Positions 5,499 through 48,188 of a stretch of 53,998 bases of DNA are shown piece by piece. The DNA lies in NCBI GenBank assembly GCA_026025075.1, contig JAPEUI010000052.1, forward strand, positions 62,001 through 115,998, given 5' to 3'. The stretch is from Vezdaea acicularis (taxonomy: Eukaryota). Each line of letters opens with the position of its first letter. The first letter of the stretch is position 1. Under the pieces are notes generated by a model. It was given only the letters and a program-made list of their open reading frames with translations. It searched no databases and was not told the origin of the DNA. The translations under genes were made by a program, and so were the position numbers.

Positions 5499-6736
5499 TC
5501 AGCTTTCTGACACGTCCACCGCGTGCCTTTCCCCCTCGCCGACACTTCCCGCCGCCGTACTAACACCAGGTTTATGCCGCCTTTTCCGTTTCCTCTTCGC
5601 CGCCGGCTCGCCGCCTGGTCCGACATTTTCCTTCTCGTCGGTGCTATGATGTATTGATGGCCGCTCTTCAAGGCTCTTTTCTGTGGCGGGAAGGGCTGTC
5701 TTGCTCACCGTCTCCTCTTCCCGCTGCTTCTTTGGCTTCTTGATGCTGAGGGGGTTCGGACCTTTCGGGCCTCTTGCTCGCTTCTTCTTTGGTTTATCCT
5801 CTGTCTTTGCCTCTGCTCCACCTTCCCGCTCCCCTCCCTCTCCCGCCACAGCCTGCACCTCCTCCCTCTTCCGCTTCCGCCCCACCAAGCCGGAGCGCAA
5901 CTTCCCCCTCTCCCCTCCCTCCCGCACCACCTCACTCCGCTCGCTCATCGGCTCCATCACCATCACGCTCCGGTTGACATACACCAGCGGCACCCCCGTC
6001 TTCGCCCGCATCGCCTTGCGCACGCCGACGTCCTGGCTGGCAACCACGTACCGGTGTTTGTTCGTATTCGTGCTCTTCGGGTCGACGACGGAGGAGAGGC
6101 AGTCGAGCGTGCTGAGGGGCGAGGGCAGCGTATGGTGGTCGCAGCGGCGCCGCTCGAAGGTGCGGGCGAGCGCGATGAGAGCTTGAGCGTCGACTTGTGG
6201 GGAGCTCGGGAGCGCGTATAGGTGCCGCATGCTACACTGTGTAATCACTAGAAATTATCAATCTTGGATCAGCCTTCCCATTCCAGTTTGTTCCTTTTTT
6301 CGTCGTCCTCCTTCTCCTCCCAACAAAGCAAGAGCGGGCCCGCCAGAAAAGTTGGGTCCAGACCGCGCGCGGGAAAATGGGGAGTCAACATACTCGGTTT
6401 TATCTCGCCGTGTAACGTCCGCCGAAGCCCGCCCTCCACATCCATCTTGAACCGCGCCGTATCTTGCAGCATTTCCGCGTCCACTATATATGCCCATACA
6501 CCACAATCATTAGCAATCAATCAATCAATCGCATCCCACAAGTCCTCAACTCCCTTCTCCCCATCCCCCCTGCTTCTCTCTCTCTCTCACAAGCTTCCAC
6601 ACTTCCAAGGAAAGAACGATCGAGAAGAGACACACAAGGAGAACTCACCCAGCACCTGATACGGTTCGCGGAAGCCGAAGGTTAGGCCGTACTGCTGCAT
6701 CAGCTTGCGGTACTGCTTCGAGCGTTTCCCGCGCAT
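5499..6736 (-). CDS. UTP23: SSU processome PIN-domain protein Utp23
   Basis: Exons 6736-6649, 6483-6394, 6247-5499. MRGKRSKQYRKLMQQYGLTFGFREPYQVLVDAEM..GEIKPMITQCSMRHLY..FERRRCDH..HRYVVASQD..GVPLVY and the C-terminal KGPNPLSIKKPK motif. Confidence 0.95.
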
Positions 6737-7199
6737 GGCTGGCGGTTCTTCGGCGTGGTGTGGTTGGTTGTTGTAAGGTAACTGCCCAGAAGTGAATTGT
6801 GCGAGGTGGTGAGGCGGGGGGGTTTTTTTGGGTGCGAGGGAAAATGGGTTCGCGTGTCACGACGCGAGTGCCGTCATGGGCGGCGACTTGAGCTTGAAGG
6901 GGTGGGGATACGCGGATGTGAGGATGGGGATGAGGCTTCTTGAATAGATTTGCAAGCTCCTGAAGAAGTGGATTACTTGTAGATTTGAACATTAATTACA
7001 TTTACAACAATTAGCATTCAGGGTGGTTCCTGGTGGTCGCAGCGCCACTTCCTTCGTTTTGGGGGAGACTTTCTGGTCTTGCGGGGGAATTGACAGCAAC
7101 TCCCTCGCCTCGCTGGTTAAAGTGCCAAAACGAAAGTTCTCAGCTGATAAGCAAACCCGTTGAGTCTTTGGACTAAAATAAGAGGATAGCTGAAATAGC

Positions 7200-7205
7200 A
7201 AAAAA
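7200..7205 (-). terminator. RNA Pol III oligo-T terminator of the tRNA-Lys gene
   Basis: TTTTTT on the minus strand, about 24 nt after the discriminator base at 7230. Confidence 0.75.
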
Positions 7206-7229
7206 GGTAATTCGCGTATGCGTCATACT

Positions 7230-7351
7230 AGCCGAAGGCGCTGTACTGAATTAGCGAAAGTTATTGGATTAGATAGGAGTATAACTCACGGGCTCGAACC
7301 CGCGACCTTGAGGTTAAGAGCCACACGCTCTACCGATTGAGCTACCCCGGC
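7230..7351 (-). tRNA. tRNA-Lys(CUU) split by a 49-nt GT-AG insert in the T-stem (exons 7351-7290 and 7240-7230)
   Basis: Spliced sequence: GCCGGGG TA GCTC AATCGGTA GAGC G TGTGG CT CTT AA CCTCA AGGTC GCGGG TTCGAGC CC|CGC CTTCGGC T. Acceptor stem 7/7 (two G-U), D stem 4/4, anticodon stem 4/5 (U29-U41), T stem 5/5 only after removing 7289-7241. A box TAGCTCAATCGG and B box GGTTCGAGCCC are intact. Anticodon at 7318-7316. Confidence 0.9.
7241..7289 (-). other. Putative U2-type spliceosomal intron within tRNA-Lys
   Basis: GTGAGTTATACTCCTATCTAATCCAATAACTTTCGCTAATTCAGTACAG: donor GTGAGT, branch GCTAAT, acceptor TACAG. At 49 nt it matches the size of mRNA introns in this window. Confidence 0.8.
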
Positions 7352-7378
7352 GGATTATTGGTGATTTAGCTACTACTT

Positions 7379-7388
7379 GAATATATAA
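7379..7388 (-). promoter_or_regulatory. TATA-like element about 30 nt upstream of the tRNA 5' end
   Basis: Minus strand reads TTATATATTC at about -28 to -37 relative to G1 (7351). Confidence 0.5.
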
Positions 7389-8197
7389 TCAATAAAAAAT
7401 ATCTGCCATAAGAACTCGGTCAGTTTGGGGCTCAATGGCCATCGCAGAAATAGAACTCTCCGTAAGACGACATCTCTCAGGTTTGACGATCCAGCCACAA
7501 TGAAGCGACATGCTGGAAGGCACAGCGGCACGTACATCTACACGTTGAAACGGGAATACATAGTCGTCGCTTGTCTATGACGCCCCGGAACGCTGAAATG
7601 GCCCCTATCTAGATATTACATGACACTTAGGTACGGGTTTTGGCCCATGATGCGGGCGATCTTAGTACATACGGCTCGTGGTATCAGCAATCTCTCATAA
7701 TGCAATACTCGTCACACGGAAAAGGCACCATGGCATGACCCTCACTCCTTCGGCTGGTTTATACTATAGCGGTCTCTAACACGAAGCGGGAATGGAGCCA
7801 TCTCAAAAGATCGTCGTTCGCCCCTGTCTTGTATGTGTGCTTTATATTGTACCATGTGCATAGTGTATCATTCAGGTAAAGATCGAAGACCACTGGATGA
7901 ATATTGAGTGAAGCGTCTTCAAGCGTGGGCAAGGGTCCGCAAATCATCACGGCGTGCAAGGTTGAATTTCCCTCTTGCAGAGACCATCTATACTGAAGGT
8001 TCTGAGGCTGCAAAATAACAGTTGGAGAGCACTATAAACTCTGAAGTATGCTCATCTATCGAGTAAGCACAGACTCTCCGGCCGGGGAGTTAAGCTGTAC
8101 CGTCGACCTAATCCCTCGAACTTAGGATGTCCGACGGATGAGGCAAAACAAGCGCAGGCCCGCATTAGGCGAGTCAGGACGTTGACAAGACTGATCT

Positions 8198-11100
8198 CTA
8201 CTCAAATTTCAATCCTCCCATCTTCGCCCTCGGCGTCAGAGGTCTCTTGACTGCGCTCTGCGTTGCCACTCTCTTGACTGCGGCAGTCAGAGGTCTCTTA
8301 ATCTTTAAGCCGTCACCCAGCTCGTTCTCCTTTGCGATTCGCTGCGCTTCTTTCTCCTTATCTTCTGCCATCTGCGCCTCAATCTCACTCTTACGATTAA
8401 ATTCTTGCTCCTTCATGCGTTTGTCGCGCGCTGAATATCCTTTCTCTTTAATGGAGTAGAACACGGAACCGAGTTGTTGGAGCCACTGCAAATGAAAAGA
8501 CGTAATTAGCACGATACACGATGAGGTACAATTAAAAGCGGTTGCTTACGTGTGGGTCGACCGAAGTCACTGTTGACATGTACTCCTTCGAAGTCAGAAT
8601 GAGCTCGTGATAGACGACATAGTCTGGTAGGTAGCCCAGGCCGTAAAGTGCGCTTGTGGGATGCAGCTGTACAGTAACGCTTGTCCTCAAGTTGATGTAT
8701 TCTCCAATACCCTTCACCTTCGCTGCCTGGTGGTAGTATCCTGAACATATACACTTCCTGATCACATCCCAATCAGTCCCACAACTCGTCAATACTAATC
8801 TCTGTTGCATCATAATCACGAGCAGTTGTTCCCTGATCTCCTTCGCCCGCCTCAAAGCCTTTGGGTGGAGGAAGTGACGAACGCACCACCCATCTGAATA
8901 ACCGTTTGCTTTCCATTGCGTATAGACGTGGAGCAAAGTCAGGTGGTCGGATTCGGGAACAAAAAATTTCTCACGGGCGGAGTCAGACTCTTCTTGTCGC
9001 TCTTTCGGCCGGTAGAAAACGCTAGGGACTGAGAGCATCGACACGATCGTCAGAACTTCCTCGCTGCAGCCGTATTCCTCGGATGTAAGTATTAGCTTCG
9101 CAAGAGAAGGATCCATGGGAAATGCTGTCATCTTGCGGCCCATCGAGGTAAGATTGCCAATGTTGTCAAGAGCACCAAGCGCCCAGAGGTCGAAGAGGGA
9201 GGTCGTGATCGTGTCTTGAGGGGGAGGGTCCATGAAATCAAAATCAAGAAGGTCTTTAACGCCGAGAGACTTTAGAAGTAAGACGATGTTGCTGAGATTG
9301 GTTCGTTGAATCTCAGGAATTGTTTGTATGTAGAGATCGTTTTTAAATGCACCCTCTGTGAACAAATGAAACGCTTTTCCAGGACCTGTACGACCTGCAC
9401 GGCCTGCACGTTGAGACGCGTTGGCTTGTGAGATCGGCGTAATCTGCAGAGTGTCCATTCCCATCCGAGGATTATAGACCTTCAACTTGGAATATCCGCC
9501 GTCAACCACGTACATAATGCCGTCTACCGTCAAACTTGTCTCAGCAATGTTGGTGGCCACTATGACTTTACGTACACCAGGCGCAGCTCGCTCGAATATT
9601 TTGGCTTGGAGGTCTGCTGGCATTTGACTGTATATGGGTAGTACGCTGAGCTTCGGGGGATCATTAAGCAGCTTTAGCCGCTCTTCAATTAGTTCGCAGG
9701 TAACTTCAATGTCTTCCTGGCCAGTCATAAATACCAGAATATCGCCTGCACCTTGAGAGACATGTATGGCAAGCACCTGTTTAACGGCACTGTCCACATA
9801 GTCCTCACAGGGAGAGCGTGAAAATTGGACATCAACAGGAAAGGTACGTCCGGGGATGAAGAACTGAGGTGCACCTCCATAAAAACGGGAGAATCGTTCA
9901 GAGTTCATCGTAGCCGACGTTACGATGAGCTTTAGGTCTCTCCTGCGAGCCAGCTTCTTCTTCATTAGGCCCATAAGCACGTCGGTATTTAATGCACGCT
10001 CATGGGCCTCATCCATGATTATGCATGAATAATCATCGAATTCAGGTTTATCTTCATTGAGAGATTCACGAAGGAGTACACCATCAGTCATATCTATAGA
10101 TTGTGATCAGTATTGTGCCTTTACATCCGGTTCATCTTAAAACTTACATTTGATTACCGTCTCATCCTTATCTGTACAGTCCTCAAATCTGATTGCATAT
10201 CCAACTAAGCCACCCAGCCTTACACCCATTTCCTCGCTCACGCGCTTTGCGACACTCATAGCAGCAACTCGACGCGGTTGTGTGCAGCCTATCATGCCAA
10301 TCTTACCATATCCGTCTTCATAGAGAAATTGTGTAAGTTGAGTGGTCTTTCCGGAACCAGTCTCACCAACAACGATGACGACCTGGTTATCCCGGATGAC
10401 CCGTAGAAGCTCTTCCCGCACAGCAAATGCTGGTAGAAACTCGCGCTGTTCCCGCAATGTTTTACTCTTACTGAAGGCACTCTGGCCCTCATTAGTCTTC
10501 AAGTGGGTCGCAAACTTGCTCCCTCCTTTACTGTCTTCTTCACCTGGTATAGGCGCAGCACTGTCACCCTCATCTTCTTTAACGCCCATGATGTTGCCCA
10601 GAGCGGTGCCAGTCATATTTGTTGCTTCCTGGGCCTGCTTCTGCCGCTCCTTCTGTTGCCGCTTCTCCTTGACAACTTTACTTCCCTTCCTGCTAAAGAC
10701 TGCCATGTCGCTCTGTGGATCTCGAATGGCTGAAACTGGCTCGAGCTGCTTTGTGAAGACTTTCCTGCCGTCTAAAAATGGCGGTCGGATATCATGAACC
10801 AGTAAATGAACCCTCATTGCCTCCTCCTCGTCCTCTAACCCCTCGTCCGCAAAATCCCGTCGCTGCGCCACCCCTGATGTGAGCATACGGTTCGTTTCCC
10901 ATGCGTCAACATCCCTCTGCTTCTGGGCAGCCCTTGCCGTAACACGTTTGCCGGTTTTGCGTTCCAACAGCGCCGTTTCTCGCTGATGATCCGCCCACGA
11001 GTTGTCACCGGGCCCAAAGGGGTTATGAGTTTCGTCGCCAAAAGTGTGTCCAAACTCATCTCCAGCATACCAGTCTCGATCGAGGGCGTCTGAATCTTCC

Positions 11101-11339
11101 TGGTCAATGCCAGGCTCTGGCCCATCAAACTCTTTCTGGCTAGGGGTTGACCGATATTGCTGAAGTCGAGGCGTAGACGCTCTTGAGCCGTTCATGAAAC
11201 GATCGCGCGTATGAAGAGGTGTCCGCGCTGGTCGTGAATGTCTTATAGTGGCGGGTCGAGATGGTACCTCGAACCCATCTTCCGCTCCGCCTGGGGTAGT
11301 ATCAATTCTCCTCCTTTTAGGACTATAGTGATTCGACAT
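8198..11339 (-). CDS. PRP16: Pre-mRNA splicing DEAH-box helicase Prp16
   Basis: Exons 11339-10148, 10093-8550, 8485-8198. Motifs [43 protein letters not shown], plus the Prp16-specific [17 protein letters not shown] and [16 protein letters not shown]. Confidence 0.96.
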
Positions 11340-11608
11340 AGCTCTGTGACCTCCCTGACATGAAGGAGTAGAGCTGAACTGAGCTGACTCAAGGTAGCCG
11401 GGGGAGTTGGAATCTTCTGTCTAGCGGCGGAGCGCGAAGGTCAACTGTAAATCTTCGTTGCTCTTGAAAGTAGAAGGTCTTACCGAGAGAACTCGCGTAA
11501 AAAAGCCATCCCTCCAAAAAAGAATATCGTCTGCCGAAGCATTTGTGGCCCAATGATGGCCTTGACCCTTAGTTCTCATGTCTACGTTGGAGCTCTCAGG
11601 CATCGAAT

Positions 11609-13402
11609 ATGTCAATAATCACAGCAACCTTATGGGTCCCTCGAGGTTTCGCGGCGCAATTTCCAACGAAATATGATATTGACGAAGCAGAATTCAGCCG
11701 GATTTCAAAGCTTGCAAAGCTCCAACTGGATGATGCCAGGGAAGATCTCAAGGAAGCGCGTCAGGACGATGGGTCAGAAGAGGAAATAGACAGCTTGCGT
11801 GATGGAGTTGAGCATAATGTAAAGATATCTGTATCTACGTTGTTCGTTGGCACCTAGTATATCATCCATATAATCTTGGCTCACCTTCTCAGAGACGCAG
11901 ATGACGATCTAAAGGAATATGACCTAGAGCATTACGATGATGATACCCATGAGGGCGAGGGCGAAGTGGCGGGAATGTTTGGAAACGTGAAGTCTTTAGC
12001 ATTTCATGAATCTAATGAGGAGGATCCTTATATTACGCTAGAAAATGTACGAAATGCTCCTCCTCATACATAGTGAAAGTGCGCTGATCTCTTGGTGTCT
12101 TCAGGATGAGGAGGAGAACGAGGAGAAAGAAGAGCTTCAAATCCTTGCGACAGATAACCTGGTCTTAGCCGCGAAACTAGAGGATGAAGTGGCTCATTTG
12201 GAGGTTTACGTATATGAGGACGAGGCAGACAACCTCTATGTTCACCATGACATCATGTTGCCGGCCATACCGCTCTGTGCCGAATGGCTTGATATTCCTG
12301 TTGGTGCCAAGAAAGCGGATAAAGATTCGAGGGGCAATTTCGTGGCGGTTGGAACTTTCGACCCCGATATTGAGATATGGGATCTAGACACAATCGACTG
12401 TATGTATCCCAGTGCAATATTAGGAGAAGGGGGACAGGAAGTCGCTGCAAGCGATAAATCCACGAAGAAGAAGCAGAAAAAGAAGAAGAAATCGAGAAAG
12501 CTAAATGACAGTTATCATGTCGACGCAGTCCTATCACTCGCAGCAAACCGACAGCACAGAAACTTGTTGGCCTCTGCTTCTGCAGATAATACTGTCAAGC
12601 TTTGGGACCTTAATACAACACAATGTGCAAAATCATATTCTTTTCACACAGATAAAGCCTGTACTCTTTCATGGCATCCACGAGAGTCGACGATATTACT
12701 CAGTGGGAGCTACGATCGAACAGTAGTCGCTGCGGACATGCGAGCCCCTGATGCGAAGATTCCGCGATGGAAGGTAGAAAGTGATGTTGAGACTGTACGA
12801 TGGGATCCTCACGACCCTAATTTCTTCTACGTATGTGGATCAGGGATACCTCAGAAGTCAGCGCGTTAACATCCCACTAGATATCTACTGAGAACGGCAT
12901 CATCCATTACCACGATGCTAGAATGATACCTAGTACCCTAGAATCCACGAAACCTATCTGGACCCTTCAAGCACACGATGAGTCCGTGTCTTCGTTTGAC
13001 GTCAATCCTATCATACCGGGTTTTTTAGCAACTGGCTCCACAGACAAGGAAGTCAAGTTATGGAATGTTCAATCATCAGGACCAAGCATGATAGTCTCAC
13101 GAAATCTTGACGTCGGGAAAGTCTTCTCGACCAATTTTGCTCCTGATAAGGAAGTTGGTTTCAGGCTTGCTGTAGCAGGGAGCAACGGAGTCATACAAAT
13201 TTGGGATACGTCTACCAACGCTGCTGTCCGGAAAGCTTTTGCAGGTAGAGTTGCACTACCTTCACCGGAAGCCAAGATGAAGGAGAGGCTTGTGAAAGTG
13301 AAAGATGATAGTAGTGATTCGGAGATAGAAGGGGGTGAAGAACCCGGGGGTGAAAGTCATACTGGCCGGGATGGATGGGACACTATGGACGAGGACGATT
13401 AA
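11609..13402 (+). CDS. PWP1: WD40 ribosome-biogenesis protein Pwp1
   Basis: Exons 11609-11841 (donor GTTCGT inferred from phase), 11893-12046, 12105-12830, 12881-13402. Motifs MSIITATLWVPRG, DDDLKEYDLEHYD, NLYVHHDIMLPAIPLCAEWLD and NFVAVGTFDPDIEIWDLD. Confidence 0.95.
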
Positions 13403-35540: not shown

Positions 35541-38288
35541 TCAGAACGCATCTTCGAAGGGGCAGTCCACGCTATCGTGCCCATCGCGTTCACATAGCGC
35601 ACACCATTTCTCTGGATCCACAATTCCAGTGCTCTTCCCAGGAATCATTCCCGTATCCGATGGGTTTGGCATCGGATGAGGCAGCGGCTGAACTTTTACA
35701 GCTGGAGACACCACAGGCGATTTCTTTCCAGGGGAGAGCGGTGCAACTTTATCCTCAGCATGCGGAGCAGGAACAGAGAGCCCCTTGAGACCTTCAACTA
35801 CTGCATCTTTCCCAGTTCGCTGGATATGGGGAGATGATTTATTCATATGCGGGCTTTTTTGCTGCTCGTCCGGGACTTGGTTGCCGAACATGTTGGTGCA
35901 TGTGAGGATATCGTGTCCACTTGTTTCGCATATCTCGCACCATAAAATGCTGCCGTCCGCATCAGAGGAGTATGTATCACTGGTCTCCTGCATCGTCTCG
36001 AGAGTGCCCGACCTATGACCTTCAGGCTGTTGACCGTTTTCTCTCCAACTGACGACAGTCCCTTTAGAGTCTCGACCCGACGATCTTTTGCTCTGCGTCA
36101 AAGTCCGTTCTGAAATGCCGTTGCTCCCCAATGTTCCTGCACTTGCTCGCTCTGGTGCTGAGCCACCTTTTCTAAGCCGTTCAATCTCCCGTTCGAGCTC
36201 CTCCTCCCTATAGGACTTGCGCTCTATAAGGCCTTCCAATTCTTTGACATTGCGGGCCAGCTTTTCCTTTGCATTACGTTCCTCTTCTAGTTCTGCACTT
36301 CTTCTCTGAACTGCGCCATTAGATTTAGAGTTTTGTGAGTTGCGCTGGCTTGATCTTCGGCCAGTGACGTCCATGCCAGTGGTAATGAGATCTGGCACGG
36401 CATCTCTGCTCAATGAGTGAATGATAGCCTTTAGTCCCCGAATTTCGTCATCCCGCTGCTCAACTTCTTTAGCTCCTCCTGCGCCAGCGGCGCCATCGAC
36501 AGCCCCAGCAGCACCCTTCAGTGCTGCTGCTGCTTTTTCCCTCTCTCTTCGAAGCTCGGATCGACCTCTCTCAACTTCCCCCCTGAGGAATTCGACTTCC
36601 CCACGAGCTTCGGCTTCGCCTCGCCGGGCATCTTCAAGCCCTTCCTCTAGCTCCTGCACAAGCTCTTCGAGCTGCTTCAGTTGGCGCGCCACACTTTCCA
36701 CGTCCTCCCCTCGGCCTTGAAGTTCTCGGACTTCTTCGAGTAGATCTTCTACACGCTTCTCATAGACTCGTTCGGTTTCGGTACTGGCCATTTCCAAGGT
36801 GTCGATTGTACTCCGGAAGTCCGCTCTATGAGCGTCGAACTCAGCAGTCAACATTGCAATCTTCTCGTTCTTCTCTCTTAGGAGGGCTCGCAGAGAGGAT
36901 GCATCCATATCTTCGTTTCCACTTCCTCTGCTGCCTCTAGCTCCGCCATCCGAATTTGCACCCATCAAGGATTGCAGTTCAGCGAAGCTATTCTCCATCT
37001 CAGCAAGGCTTGAAGCTTGCTCTTTAAGTTGCTTGTCACGTTCCTGTAACTTCTCCTTCAACCGCTCAAACTCTTCATCTGAATGACTTGATCCCCTTTG
37101 CGTCTTGAGATCGAATGCTGCAATTGACCCATCATTTGTGCGGGCCACACCAATGGGAGTAGTGTCATTGTCGACTTCATCTAGGTCTTGATGGTTCTCA
37201 GTGGCCGACGTACTGCGTGGAGGCCCAGGTCCTTTACCACTTGCTTTGGGTGTAAAGGCGAGCTTCTTGCCCGGGTCGCCGCTGTATGTATTACCTGTTG
37301 AATCTCGCTTGCCTCTAAAGCTTGCACCAAATCTCCCTGGAGTAGGGCTTGGTGCGTATCGAGAAACCGCAACCTTTACCCCAGGTGTTTGCCCAGCAAC
37401 TGAAGGCCGAGTCGAGGGATTTACGAGTGAGTTCTGATTTTTGCGTAAAGGTGATTCCGGTCTAGGTAGAGATGGCCTTGCCCTCGGCTTAAAGTGTGGA
37501 CTCGGAGCTCGTCCGGGTCCAACAGACTGGCTGAATTTGGGAAGTGACGGAGTTGGTGGCGTGTACGCATTATGACCAACTGCATCATTTTGACTAACGT
37601 TGAAACCGCGAAGAGAAGGTGTCGTTGGTGTAGGTGGGAAAGAGTCAGATGATATCGTTGGAGATGACCTTTTCGAGGCTCTATTAAGAGGTAAGAAGAT
37701 GCCCGAATTTGGTACAGATGTGGTGAAATATCGGACACTATCCAAATTGAATCAGCCAATTGTCCAAGGGTCCGTTCCAAAGTCCGTTGAATTAACTCAC
37801 CCATCGACATCACCGTCATTCTTGCCCCGCGGAGCCCATTCTCTGCTCAGCTCCACACCGGCGAACGTGCCATTCTTGCCCTCGATTGATCCGACATACT
37901 TGACGATACCGTGCATACCTCCAGGTACGTCGACCGTATCACCTACATCGATCCCCTCTTCACCCCCGTTCATCTTCCTCGTCGCCGGTGTTTTCGGCAT
38001 CATGTTTGCTGGCGACGAGATTTGACCCTGCACTGAACTTAGGCCGTAGCCCGCACTCGCGTCGGGGATTGTTGCCAGCGAGTTTGATGTGAGCTGATTA
38101 AAGCTGGCCTTTCGAGCGATGACCGCGCTCACGCTTAGGCCCTCTTGCGATCCCGACTGCGATGCGGACGCGTTCGGTAATGGAGGATGCTGCTGTAATG
38201 AATAGGCGGCGCCGAGGTTAGGAGACGAAGCTGTCAGGAGCGTTTGTCGTGGGCGCGCCAAAGACCGTCGCGGCGTCTGTGTTGACAT
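35541..38288 (-). CDS. CAP-Gly microtubule plus-end protein, CLIP-170/Bik1/Tip1-like
   Basis: Exons 38288-37801 and 37737-35541. CAP-Gly motif FAGVEL...GKNDGDVDGVRYF, a long coiled coil, two zinc knuckles (WCEICETSGHDILTC, WCALCERDGHDSVDC) and a C-terminal EDAF. Confidence 0.92.
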
Positions 38289-41165: not shown

Positions 41166-43393
41166 ATGTCAAATCACGAAGACGCCGATGCCACTCTACC
41201 AAACGTCGCACCTGCTAAGCCAGGCTCTACGGACGTGACCTCACCCAATCCAGCTAAGAATGAATCTTCTGAATCGAAAGAGGCGGTCCTGGCGAAGGAA
41301 ACAAATCCTACCTTAAAGGGTATCTCTTTCCTTTCCCGCTTTGAGGCAACGAGGATTTGCTCACTCCATAATCTGAATGTTGGCTAATGTCAAACGGACA
41401 TAAAGACTCCCCGCAGCCAGTTGAAGCTGACTCTAGGGGGGTCTTAGAACCTTCAGGCGTAGCACAACCCAGTTCGGATCCTCCTCCAGAGATGAAAAGT
41501 GAAGATGCCGAGACAAAACCTGATGCCGATTCTAATGAAGCTCCAGCACAATCATTTGCACGGGGCACTGTTACGGCGACCAACGGAACTCCAGCGAGCG
41601 CGAAAAAGGGCAAGCGCAAGTCTGTATCTGGAGTCCCAGAGCATAAGACTAAGAAGCTGCAAAAGAAAAAGTCCCAAGTAGGTCTCTCACATATTGATGC
41701 GCAACCTGGCGACTACTTCCTCGTCAAAATAAAGGGATATCCTCCCTGGCCAGCTGTCGTTGCCGACGACGTGATGCTTCCTGGTGCACTGTTGTCGAGT
41801 CGTCCAATCACCGCCAAGCGCCCTGATGGAAGCTGGAATGAACCATACAGAGACGGCGGTAAGAAGGTTGCTGAGCGTAGTTTCCCTGTCATGTATATGG
41901 GAACAAACGAATTGTGAGTGTGCACCCCTCGTTCCACGTACTTGGTCAGACTTTAACATTCCGCTTTCAACTTTATCGGAGTATACCATTAACAGAAATA
42001 ATTTCAGTTCATGGACGACCAACACGGACCTCGTCGATTATGACTTTACTAGCAACGAGCCACCAAAGGCCAAGGCTAAAGGCCTCCTTGAGGCGTACAG
42101 ATTTGCTGCAGAAAATTTCGACCTCAAGCACTGGAAAGATATCCTTGTGGAGCACCAGCAAGCACTGAATGCTGACAAAGAGCGCAAGGCGTCAAAGAAA
42201 TCAACCCCTAAGGGAAAGAGAAAAAGCTCGGAGCTCGTGGGGGATGATGATGAGGAGGATCTAGAGATGCCTGATGCGGCAGATGGGATGGAATTCGACG
42301 GCGAAGAAGCTGGAGTTGATACAAAAAGTAAATCGAAGAAGCGGAAAAAGGCTGTTGATAGCGATGGCGAGGCAGGAAAGGTATGTGACCGCGCTACATC
42401 GTGCGAGGAATTTCGAAACAGGGCAAATGTCTAACATTATTTCGAAGGCTCCGAAGCGAGTGGACTCTGGCAAGAAAGGCACTAAGCTTAAGCTCTCAAA
42501 GCCAAAAACCCCTAATGGAACTCCTGTGCCCAAATCAGCATCTAAAGCCAAAAGTGCCTCTGCTTCAAAAACCGCGAAGCCTAAGGGCTCTGTCAAGAAG
42601 TCGGCAGTAAAGGTTAAAGACAGCAGTGACGAAGACGCAGTTGAGGGGAATACGAAGTCAGAGGAGAAACCCATGACTGTTGCGGAGCTACAAGCCAAGA
42701 AAGAGAAGGAGATTCTGTGGCTCAGGTATAGCTTTACGAACATTCCTTTCGAATCCTATCCTAATTACCCAACAGGCACAAGCTACAGCGAGGATTCTTG
42801 ACAAGAGACCAGATGCCGAAGGAAGATGTGAGTTCCCGTGATTTGTCGTATTCATCTTTACAATACAAATCTAATTTGTTTCAATTTCCAAGGAGATGAA
42901 AATCATGTCTGATTACATCAGCCGGCTTGAAACATACTCTGATCTTGAGGTTAGCATAATTCGTGCTACAAAGATCAACAAGGTACTTAAGGCAATCATC
43001 AAACTCCCATCAATTCCACGAGACGAGGAGTTCAACTTCAAGACTCGATCCCACGACTTACTGGCGAAGTGGAATACCCTTCTAGCCAATGAACCGGAGG
43101 CATCTGCGGGCCTTGCTATTAGTGTGGACAAAGCTATCGTGAACGGAGTCGGGAAGCCGAGCAATGGTATTTCTACAGCAACATCTGGAGAGAAAAGGGA
43201 AAGTGGCGAAGAGGATGTATTGGAAGCGAAGCAGGAAAGTCTCGAAACAATGTTGATGAAGGATGAGATACACATCGAATCATCGGGTGGGGGCAAGATT
43301 GAGCCGACACTTGCACGCACGCCCACACACGAAGCCAAGTCTGCTGATCAGCAAGAGATGGTGGAAGCTTCTCCTGTCGAAGAAACTGCTTAA
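41166..43393 (+). CDS. PWWP-domain chromatin reader with C-terminal TFIIS-N/IBD-like domain (Pdp3-like)
   Basis: Exons 41166-41319, 41406-41913, 42008-42380, 42448-42725, 42776-42827, 42893-43393. Motifs LVKIKGYPPWPAVV, LRHKLQRGFLTRD and IIRATKINKVLKAIIKLPSIPRDEEFNFKTRS. Confidence 0.88.
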
Positions 43394-46215: not shown

Positions 46216-47376
46216 ATGGGGGGCAAGACCGGCAACAAAGCCGCTTACTTCGACAAGCTCAAAGCTCTGCTCGAAGAGTTTAAGAGCATTTTCATTGTCA
46301 CGGTAGACAATGTAAGCTCCCAGCAAATGCACGAGATACGTGCAAGTCTCCGCGGAGATGGGGTCGTTTTAATGGGCAAGAATACGATGGTGAGTAGGCT
46401 CCATGCTTCGTTCAAGATTCTTTTCTGGGCTGATCAATTTCGTTATTCAGGTCCGCCGTGCGATCAAGGGCTTCATTGGTGATAATCCCGAGTATGAGCG
46501 CCTCTTACCTCATGTCAAAGGTAATGTCGGTTTTTCACTGAACTCAGTGAATTCTTGCTTACTTAACGTCAGGCAACGTCGGATTCGTCTTCACGAACGC
46601 TGATCTCAAGGATACCCGAGAGAAGATTCTTTCCAATAAAGTTGCCGCGCCAGCGAGAGCTGGAGCCGTAGCTCCTCTTGACGTTAGTATCAATGAGACT
46701 ATAATCAGATAACTATCTAATGATAAGCAGGTCTATGTCCCAGCTGGCAACACTGGTATGGAACCTGGAAAAACCTCATTCTTCCAAGCCCTTGGAGTCC
46801 CTACAAAAATTGCTCGTGGAACAATCGAAATTACGACGGATTTGAAGCTTGTTGAAGCCGGTAACAAGGTTGGAGCATCCGAAGCAACGCTTCTTAACAT
46901 GCTTAACATCTCGCCTTTCACATATGGGATGGGCATCTCACAAGTTTATGACGACGGTCAGTGTTTTGGTCCAGACGTTCTAGACATAGAAGAAAAACAG
47001 CTTCTCGACGCTTTGGCATCTGCCATCAAGACTATCGCATGCGTCTCGTTAGCTACCAACTACCCAACCCTTCCCTCTGTTATCCATTCTGTGGTTAATG
47101 GCTACAAAAAGATCCTCGCCGTTGCGATTGAGACAGAGTATAGCTGGCCTGAAATAGAAGATCTCAAGGACCGTATTGCGAACCCGGATGCATATGCTGG
47201 TTCTGGTCCAGCTGCTGCAACAGCGGATGAACAGGGTAATACTGAAGCTAAAGAAGAGGAGAAGAAGGAAGAGGAGGATGAGGAGAGTGAAGAAGGTTCG
47301 ACATCCAATGAAAACCATCTTATTTTTTGATAAGCTAACTGTAAGCACAGATATGGGCTTTGGACTGTTTGATTAG
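46216..47376 (+). CDS. RPP0: 60S acidic ribosomal protein P0 (uL10)
   Basis: Exons 46216-46389, 46451-46520, 46573-46682, 46731-47295, 47351-47376. Motifs [24 protein letters not shown] and [22 protein letters not shown], with the C-terminal [13 protein letters not shown]. Confidence 0.98.
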
Positions 47377-48188
47377 GGTGTCTTAGCTTCGCAAGACTAC
47401 GTACACAGTCCCGGCAGGTTGCCCCGATTATCATGCTCCTGAAACGATAGGAAAACACAGGGTTAAGCTAGACTTGCGCTCCTCTCGAGGTAAGGGTAGT
47501 AACTTAATAAACCAAATATTCCGTGTCAAGAAGCTCTCTGCCTGTCCATGGCATGTGAGATTGTTGCTTTCGCTGTGAAATAAGGATTCAATCTACCGTC
47601 ATACATACTAGTAAGTTTTCCCCAGTCTGTCTTAGCGATCCGGCTCTCTTTTCCAAGTCCGCAGAAGATTAAATATTTTTAACCCTGACTCACCTTATGG
47701 AGAAGCACAAAAGCAACAAAACTCTAATTTTTTCATGATGCACTCCCTTTTGAGCACCAAAATATACAAATATGGGGGTAACTCTCGCTAATGTCTGTTT
47801 GCCTTCCAGATCATGTACAATAACGGCTCAGTCCATAATGACGGGAGTAGGCGCCTTATGATAGAATTTTAGCCATAGCTTAAGCTAGCGCCTCCCTAGT
47901 ACATCAACTATCTTACGTCAAAGATAGACATTTGCGCAAGCCCCGGCCAGCTGCTCCCTTTCTCCCTTCTCCTACGCTTATGTCTCGTGCCAGTGGCATA
48001 TTTTCTTGCATCCTTTCGAAGATAGCTATAGATAAGTTACGACTGTCTAAGCAAAGCTATGCAGATTCTCAAGTGCTAGAAATGGCTATTGACATGAGCG
48101 TCCACCCACGAGAGCCTAAAATGCCACCACCAAATGGTCACAAGCCACCAGCTATCATATGAGCTAATTTTAACCCTTCCTTAAACAA

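Follow-up and report, generated by a model that had tools for sequence, protein, structure and literature searches.

The stretch of DNA analysed here, hereafter the window, comprises the 53,998 nucleotides (nt) at positions 62,001 to 115,998 of contig JAPEUI010000052.1, forward strand, in the assembly GCA_026025075.1 of Vezdaea acicularis. On the minus strand of this window lies a tRNA-Lys(CUU) gene, which is interrupted within the 3' strand of its T-stem by an insert of 49 nt that bears the 5' splice site, the branch motif and the 3' splice site of a spliceosomal intron, and is most probably an intron of this type.

Structure of the interrupted tRNA-Lys(CUU) gene

The interrupted unit measures 122 nt in all and is made up of the following three parts, given from the 5' end of the tRNA:

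7351-7290, minus strand, 62 nt: exon 1, tRNA-Lys(CUU) nt 1-62, read from the sequence, with an Rfam tRNA match and an ARAGORN cloverleaf once the insert is removed
7289-7241, minus strand, 49 nt: insert between tRNA nt 62 and 63, read from the sequence (GTGAGT...CTAAT...TACAG)
7240-7230, minus strand, 11 nt: exon 2, CGCCTTCGGCT, tRNA nt 63-73, placed by pair count and the ARAGORN cloverleaf

Exon 1 contains the 5' strand of the acceptor stem, the D arm, the anticodon arm (anticodon CTT), the variable loop, the 5' strand of the T-stem, the T loop, and the first 2 nt of the 3' strand of the T-stem. Exon 2 supplies a further 3 nt of the T-stem, the 7 nt of the 3' strand of the acceptor stem, and the discriminator T, with no encoded CCA. 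The absence of a CCA after the discriminator rules out a retro-copy of a mature tRNA.

When the intact window was scanned with ARAGORN under five option sets, the intron modes included, no tRNA was called. The tRNA model of Rfam/Infernal gave a local match only (7288-7344, 40.6 bits, with a gathering score of 29), which covers model positions 8-63 of 71 and omits both the acceptor stem and the end of the T-stem, and the whole-window Rfam scan, at E up to 1, returned no further tRNA fragments. Once the 49 nt had been deleted by script, ARAGORN called a 73-nt tRNA-Lys(ctt), which was not marked as a pseudogene under the -rp option, and a complete cloverleaf, in which the conserved nucleotides are present and the anticodon loop has 7 nt, is found only in this spliced form, the T-stem of which has five Watson-Crick pairs out of five, and the acceptor stem five Watson-Crick and two G-U pairs.

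Given that ARAGORN is tolerant, with 48 of 1085 deletion variants also being called, it is unsuited to a test of exact boundaries, and a direct count of the pairs was used instead, covering three T-stem and seven acceptor positions at each of 300 offsets after nt 62. The offset of 49 alone reaches 10 pairs out of 10, eight of them Watson-Crick, and the next best are three offsets with 8 out of 10, mostly through G-U pairs in T-rich sequence. The fold of the tRNA thus sets both boundaries of the insert to the base, independently of the splice signals. There is no target-site duplication at these boundaries, both of which are unambiguous (C/G...G/C, where the slash marks the joint).

A first-pass annotation of this DNA had read the tRNA as normal up to nt 62, followed by the 49-nt insert and by 11 nt that complete the T-stem, the acceptor stem and the discriminator, with neither a target-site duplication nor any ambiguity of the boundaries; the coordinates and letters on the minus strand are as it gave them, and the pair count and the joints agree. 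It had also expected that standard scanners would probably call the gene truncated or a pseudogene and had proposed running a tRNA finder with and without 7241-7289, and this comparison, made with ARAGORN, yielded a call only after the removal of the insert, with Rfam/Infernal giving the truncated match.

Other classes of intron were considered for the insert. A canonical tRNA intron, the substrate of TSEN, is ruled out by the position of the insert at 62/63 in the 3' strand of the T-stem instead of at 37/38, the anticodon loop being uninterrupted. A bulge-helix-bulge intron has two bulges of 3 nt, which hold the splice sites, with a helix of 4 bp between them; this class is ruled out in that the central 4-bp helix forms in none of the four cleavage registers, and no such motif is found in the minimum-free-energy or centroid fold of the 122-nt precursor. 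Introns of group I or group II are ruled out by size, 49 nt being far too small. The contrast that the first-pass annotation had drawn with introns at 37/38 and with bulge-helix-bulge introns is in keeping with these results.

Splice signals and the introns of the window

The insert has a G+C content of 35%, contains no run of four or more T, carries no terminal repeats, and is largely unstructured (-3.4 kcal/mol, z -0.47). The motifs relevant to splicing are as follows:

7284-7289, minus strand: candidate 5' splice site GTGAGT, the first base of which directly follows tRNA nt 62
7268-7272, minus strand: second CTAAT in the sequence, farther upstream, with its branch A at 7269
7250-7254, minus strand: proximal branch motif CTAAT, 10 nt from the 3' end of the insert, with the branch A at 7251, where the first-pass annotation had placed it
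7246-7248, minus strand: competing CAG, which precedes the required 3' splice site by 5 nt
7241-7243, minus strand: candidate 3' splice site CAG, formed by the last three bases of the insert

Among the 49-mers on the two strands of the window (n = 107,898), 43 start with GTRAGT, 2963 end with YAG, and 8987 have CTRAY at 5-30 nt from the end. Only one of the 107,898 combines all three signals, namely the insert, and multiplying the marginal frequencies gives 9e-7. With no constraint on position, the strict motif GTRAGT..CTRAY..YAG occurs six times in the window, compared with 2.92 +/- 1.64 times in 100 shuffles (maximum 7). As the motif is not so rare under this freer search, the argument rests on its coincidence with the break in the tRNA, and not on the motif alone. 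No other copy of the insert is present within the 54-kb window, where the best non-self match covers 14 nt at 93% identity (E 1.6).

For comparison with the mRNA introns of the same genome, the frame-joining introns found in the window were taken as the set:

12831-12880, 50 nt: frame-joining intron with GTATGT
10094-10147, minus strand, 54 nt: PRP16 intron with GTAAGT, CTGAT and TAG
37738-37800, 63 nt: frame-joining intron with GTGAGT, CTGAT and TAG
8486-8549, minus strand, 64 nt: PRP16 intron with GTAAGC, CTAAT and CAG
42381-42447, 67 nt: frame-joining intron with GTATGT and CTAAC
6248-6393, minus strand, 146 nt: UTP23 intron with GTATGT, GCTGAT and TAG
6484-6648, minus strand, 165 nt: first UTP23 intron with GTGAGT, GCTAAT and TAG

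The insert (49 nt; GTGAGT, GCTAAT and CAG) fits these introns in both signals and size, at the short end of the range, and its distance of 10 nt from the branch to the 3' end falls among the 10-20 nt of the set. The match to the mRNA introns of the genome that the first-pass annotation had claimed is therefore found here in introns of 50-165 nt, with GTGAGT, GTAAGT or GTATGT at the 5' end and CTRAY at the branch. Given these signals and the boundaries set by the fold, the insert is very probably a true U2-type (GT-AG) spliceosomal-type intron, as far as this can be read from the DNA.

Some further features of the introns of the window may be recorded here. The two UTP23 introns (165 and 146 nt) are unusually long in relation to the 50-67 nt found elsewhere in the window. 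The first of them shares with the tRNA insert a GTGAGTT start and a GCTAAT branch, with no wider similarity detected by BLAST. In addition, a 50-nt stretch at 2830-2879, on the plus strand, has a perfect GTGAGT..CTAAC..CAG arrangement and lies within the long frame of a gene for a fungal PH-like-domain protein (ATG at 2643); since its length is not divisible by three, the start is misannotated or the stretch is a chance or alternative intron.

Promoter elements, neighbouring genes and possible haplotypes

The A box, the B box, the upstream TATA element and the T6 terminator of RNA polymerase III (Pol III) that had been claimed in the first-pass annotation are all present. They are listed here together with the genes on either side:

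7333-7344, minus strand: A box (nt 8-19), intact by the generally known consensus
7290-7300, minus strand: B box (nt 52-62), intact by the generally known consensus
7381-7387, minus strand: TATA-like element TATATAT in the sequence, at -36 to -30 from tRNA nt 1
7200-7205, minus strand: run of six T, candidate Pol III terminator, 25 nt beyond the discriminator
8198-11420, minus strand: PRP16 (DEAH-box splicing helicase) gene, the upstream neighbour, with its stop codon at 8198-8200; the upper limit is not a mapped 5' end
5499-6736, minus strand: UTP23 gene, the downstream neighbour, with its ATG at 6734-6736 and the Pfam domains Fcf1 and UTP23_sensor; the lower limit is not a mapped 3' end

The A and B boxes are normally spaced and both lie in exon 1, with no base between the B box and the insert, so that the internal promoter is untouched. 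An insert placed at random would leave the promoter whole in roughly a quarter of cases, namely in the last 11 nt and in the first 7, and this placement is therefore no more than weak evidence of selection. No run of four or more T is found inside the 122-nt unit. Together with the TATA-like element and the T6 run, these features make up the equipment required of a Pol III gene. The TATATAT is presumably a functional Pol III element, in line with what is generally known of fungal tRNA promoters.

The tRNA locus lies in a spacer of 1.46 kb, 847 nt after the stop codon of PRP16 and 494 nt before the ATG of UTP23, with all three on the same strand and no supported open reading frame between the two protein-coding genes. 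The identification of PRP16 is based on the Pfam domains Helicase_C, HA2 and OB_NTP_bind and on a sequence search of the PDB (8cnt_A, Prp16-like protein, E 2e-302), in which the last PRP16 exon gave no match. PRP16 is the DEAH-box helicase of the second step of splicing, and the presence of the gene of a splicing helicase beside an intron-bearing tRNA is probably a coincidence. Read-through from PRP16 could supply a precursor of the tRNA made by RNA polymerase II (Pol II).

The other genes of the window, as identified by Pfam, encode a fungal PH-like domain protein, a UBA3-like protein and a Tel2-like protein. A C/D-box small nucleolar RNA (snoRNA) of the Afu_298 family was detected at 47661-47740 on the plus strand (48.3 bits, gathering score 40), and a candidate GT-AG intron of 46 nt lies near it, at 47341-47386, so this snoRNA may sit in or beside an intron of a host gene. 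The match to this snoRNA family, the fungal PH-like domain and the style of the introns, which are short with GTRAGT or GTATGT at the 5' end and CTRAY at the branch, give the window the look of a Pezizomycotina-type fungus.

The physical reality of the insert was assessed in four public DNA runs that cover the region, all of which come from a single moss-metagenome study. A contig of one run (X1) covers 7059-7362 and spans the whole insert-bearing gene with no differences, and a contig of a second run (X2) covers 7059-7466 and spans it with one difference, at 7391. As the insert is contained in the contigs of two DNA runs, it is not an assembly error. In X1, the gene is crossed by a single contig with a depth of 5.9, and 7333-7428 is covered by two contigs of 96 bases, of about equal depth (2.9 and 2.7), that have different bases at 7363, 7364, 7388 and 7398. 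These depths suggest that at least two haplotypes share the insert-bearing gene but differ just upstream of it.

Within these contigs, the five single-base differences of the X1 contigs (7363, 7364, 7388, 7391 and 7398) all fall within 36 bases just upstream of the tRNA, and none falls in 7059-7362; at 7391, every X1 and X2 contig has C where the window has A. The cluster at 7363-7398 has the appearance of variation between haplotypes or strains that is concentrated in the 5' flank of the gene. Given that 170 nt of plain 3' flank are as invariant as the gene, the invariance of the latter says nothing about constraint. An intron-less paralogue was not seen among the run contigs (80% likeness; no joints or loose ends), which are of low depth and uninformative either way.

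Two wider scans were also made. In a metagenome collection that does not include the contig of the window, the end of exon 1 followed by GTNNGT was found at 10 loci, all of them prokaryote-type tRNA or tmRNA-like 3' ends, with no relatives of the interrupted gene among them. In prokaryote genomes, a pattern running from the D arm to the anticodon loop was found at seven loci, all of which are bacterial tRNA-Lys(CTT).

Proposed working, rival readings and meaning

We propose that the locus may be a nuclear tRNA-Lys(CUU) gene with a genuine U2-type intron of 49 nt between positions 62 and 63. Pol III would start from the intact A and B boxes of exon 1, aided by the TATA-like element at -30, would traverse the insert, in which there is no run of four or more T, and would stop at the T6 run 25 nt downstream. 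Alternatively, the precursor could be a Pol II transcript of PRP16 that reads through the locus on the same strand. The spliceosome would then recognise the short insert by intron definition, from GUGAGU, from the CUAAU with its branch A at 7251 and from the CAG that lies 10 nt beyond it, and the joining of C62 to C63 would complete the T-stem and the acceptor stem, after which RNase P, RNase Z and the addition of CCA would finish the 73-nt tRNA. That the insert is spliced in this way to give a working tRNA is a tentative reading of the sequence. The stronger claim, of a nuclear tRNA that depends on the spliceosome for its maturation, as a Pol III pre-tRNA or a Pol II read-through product from which the insert must be removed in a U1/U2-dependent manner before the T arm and the acceptor stem can form, is rather unlikely.

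With regard to origin, we favour a route in which the spliceosome reverse-spliced an intron into a transcript of the tRNA, which would then have been reverse transcribed. Alternatively, the intron may have been reverse-spliced straight into DNA, namely into the sense strand displaced by an R-loop at the tRNA gene, and tRNA genes are prone to R-loops. Either route would account for the sense orientation, the exact boundaries and the lack of a target-site duplication. This lack, together with that of any transposon feature, favours insertion mediated by the spliceosome over models in which the intron is derived from a transposon. For introners that are not transposons, it has been suggested that introns are gained through reverse splicing into the single-stranded DNA of R-loops (PMC11146597).

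Ectopic spliceosomal introns are already known in fungal genes that do not encode mRNA. In Schizosaccharomyces pombe, for example, U6 is a Pol III transcript from which an intron is removed by the spliceosome, and Canzler et al. (2016) surveyed many U6 genes of fungi, in which the introns are unrelated, often limited to a species, and canonical in their signals (PMC5855946). The same review also places spliceosomal introns in the genes of U1, U2, U5 and rRNA, which agrees with what the first-pass annotation had stated of U6, other small nuclear RNAs (snRNAs) and rRNA. A spliceosomal intron from the rDNA of a lichen, when placed in the rDNA of yeast, was removed from transcripts of RNA polymerase I (Pol I) (PMC8527467), and introns in the rRNA genes of ascomycetes and lichens were described by Bhattacharya et al. 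(2000), cited in both PMC5855946 and PMC8527467. Given the precedents of U6 (Pol III) and rDNA (Pol I), the spliceosomal splicing of a tRNA precursor would be possible rather than exotic. The combination with a tRNA gene is not found in print: the full-text literature searched, which takes in few subscription journals and not the supplements of the papers found, returned accounts of spliceosomal introns in the genes of U6, other snRNAs, U3 and rRNA and of non-canonical tRNA introns of the bulge-helix-bulge kind, but no spliceosomal intron in a tRNA gene, as the first-pass annotation had supposed.

The likeness to the fungal U6 introns lies in a short GT-AG intron with a canonical 5' site, branch and 3' site, set in a small, structured RNA gene of the Pol III type, for which reverse splicing is the proposed origin. 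Unlike the tRNA, which has no such contact, U6 is lodged within the spliceosome's active site, and this explains the insertions in its genes. U6 is also often present in one copy, which makes the splicing of its introns obligatory, while genes for tRNA-Lys(CUU) probably exist in several copies. The rRNA-gene introns of ascomycetes are likewise ectopic spliceosomal introns of a gene that is not transcribed by Pol II, in an ascomycete fungus, and are removed from the mature RNA, but those are Pol I introns found in many species, and the present case is one tRNA locus in one uncultured fungus.

In eukaryotes, the introns of tRNAs and those removed by the spliceosome belong to two systems, each with its own enzymes. 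The insert resembles a canonical eukaryotic tRNA intron in that it interrupts a nuclear tRNA gene and has to be removed for the tRNA to function, but the canonical introns lie at 37/38, are cut by TSEN, are joined by tRNA ligase and have no GT-AG or branch signals, whereas the insert lies at 62/63 and has both. The ruler mechanism of TSEN could not reach this position. The ectopic introns of archaea and of the red alga Cyanidioschyzon merolae share with the insert a non-canonical position in the tRNA, the T arm included, in genes hidden from tRNA finders (PMC4090602, PMC3978253); what defines them, however, is a fold of the bulge-helix-bulge or bulge-helix-loop kind at the junctions, neither of which can form in the tRNA-Lys(CUU) insert. 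Finally, introner-like elements and the spliceosome-mediated transposition of introns (van der Burgt 2012, Collemare 2015, Simmons 2015, and Lee and Stevens 2016, cited in PMC11146597) offer a parallel in the recent gain, in a fungus, of a short (<200 nt) non-coding spliceosomal intron that lacks terminal repeats and a target-site duplication and may have been put in place by the spliceosome itself. Introners form multi-copy families in protein-coding genes, whereas the tRNA insert has no second copy within the 54-kb window.

Several points weigh against a gene that is correctly spliced. The exon context of the insert is CCC/C, unlike the usual AG/G; the CAG at 7246-7248, used with the upstream CTAAT, could yield a product 5 nt too long; and the minimum-free-energy fold pairs GUGA, the first four bases of the intron, with nt 47-50, which partly masks the 5' splice site. 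In the spliced form, the anticodon stem has one U29.U41 mismatch and the two G-U pairs of the acceptor stem are adjacent. The interpretation of the first-pass annotation stands with respect to a spliceosomal-type intron in a tRNA gene, through the signals, the fold-set boundaries and the intact Pol III elements, and it had overlooked the mismatch, the competing CAG and the pairing of the 5' site. Genes for tRNA-Lys(CUU) are normally multi-copy, and one copy could be lost without cost. The finding also concerns one locus on one metagenomic contig, with the four DNA runs coming from the single study. As a general rule, moreover, spliceosomes act on Pol II transcripts (PMC8527467).

These points bear on a second reading, which shares the origin of the intron proposed above and is about as likely as a working gene: the intron would have landed in one redundant tRNA-Lys(CUU) gene and left a dead copy, the transcript of which is unspliced or is spliced too rarely or imprecisely, with the exons and signals intact only because the event is recent. 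The mismatch and the two G-U pairs could then be early decay, and the competing CAG, the partly masked 5' splice site, the Pol II rule and the invariance of 7059-7362 between haplotypes, which extends to the 170 nt of flank and is thus no sign of constraint, are all compatible with a dead copy. Such a copy has to be reconciled with A and B boxes, a cloverleaf, three splice signals and a terminator that are all intact at once, with the fact that a reverse-spliced intron is by construction a substrate for splicing in that RNA context, and with the fact that fungal spliceosomes do take introns out of transcripts made by Pol III (U6) and by Pol I. It is improbable that the 49 nt are instead an intron of a Pol II transcript (a long 5' untranslated region of UTP23, read-through from PRP16, or an unannotated non-coding RNA) that crosses a tRNA gene or its relic, the tRNA being a by-product; the order of PRP16, the tRNA and UTP23 on the minus strand would suit such a transcript, but the distances of 847 and 494 nt, the T6 run and the lack of a supported open reading frame in the spacer do not, and the base-exact coincidence with the halves of the tRNA would go unexplained, with an intron gain inside the tRNA sequence still being needed.

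An insertion by chance, a filler left by DNA repair that happens to resemble an intron, or an artefact of assembly is very improbable. Chance gains something from the frequency of the motif when its position is free (the six occurrences set against the shuffles), but falls to about 1e-6 to 1e-5 at boundaries fixed in advance, and an artefact is at odds with the contigs of the two runs that span the insert. The removal of the insert by TSEN, as a non-canonical tRNA intron comparable to the ectopic bulge-helix-bulge introns, is barely credible: introns of the T arm are indeed known in archaea and C. merolae, in the sources already cited, but the position away from 37/38, the absence of the 4-bp helix in all four registers, the unstructured insert and the lack of the motif in either fold speak against it.

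If the insert is a spliceosomal intron, as we consider very probable, the tRNA would join the short list of genes other than those of mRNA in which such introns occur, namely those of U6, other snRNAs, U3 and rRNA. Should the maturation of the tRNA depend on the spliceosome, which is the rather unlikely stronger claim, this would be the first class of spliceosomal intron reported in tRNA genes, and the locus would document in nature how the spliceosome has recently put an intron into a Pol III gene, for example by reverse splicing into an R-loop. It also offers a search image for fungal genomes, in the form of a truncated tRNA match that ends at the B box and is followed by GTRAGT. Should the gene be dead, it would preserve a recent gain of an intron that can still be read to the base, given that the fold of the tRNA tells the sequence that preceded the insertion. 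Should it be spliced, the spliceosome would serve a third class of Pol III gene, one with no physical link to the spliceosome, and standard tRNA finders would miss such genes.

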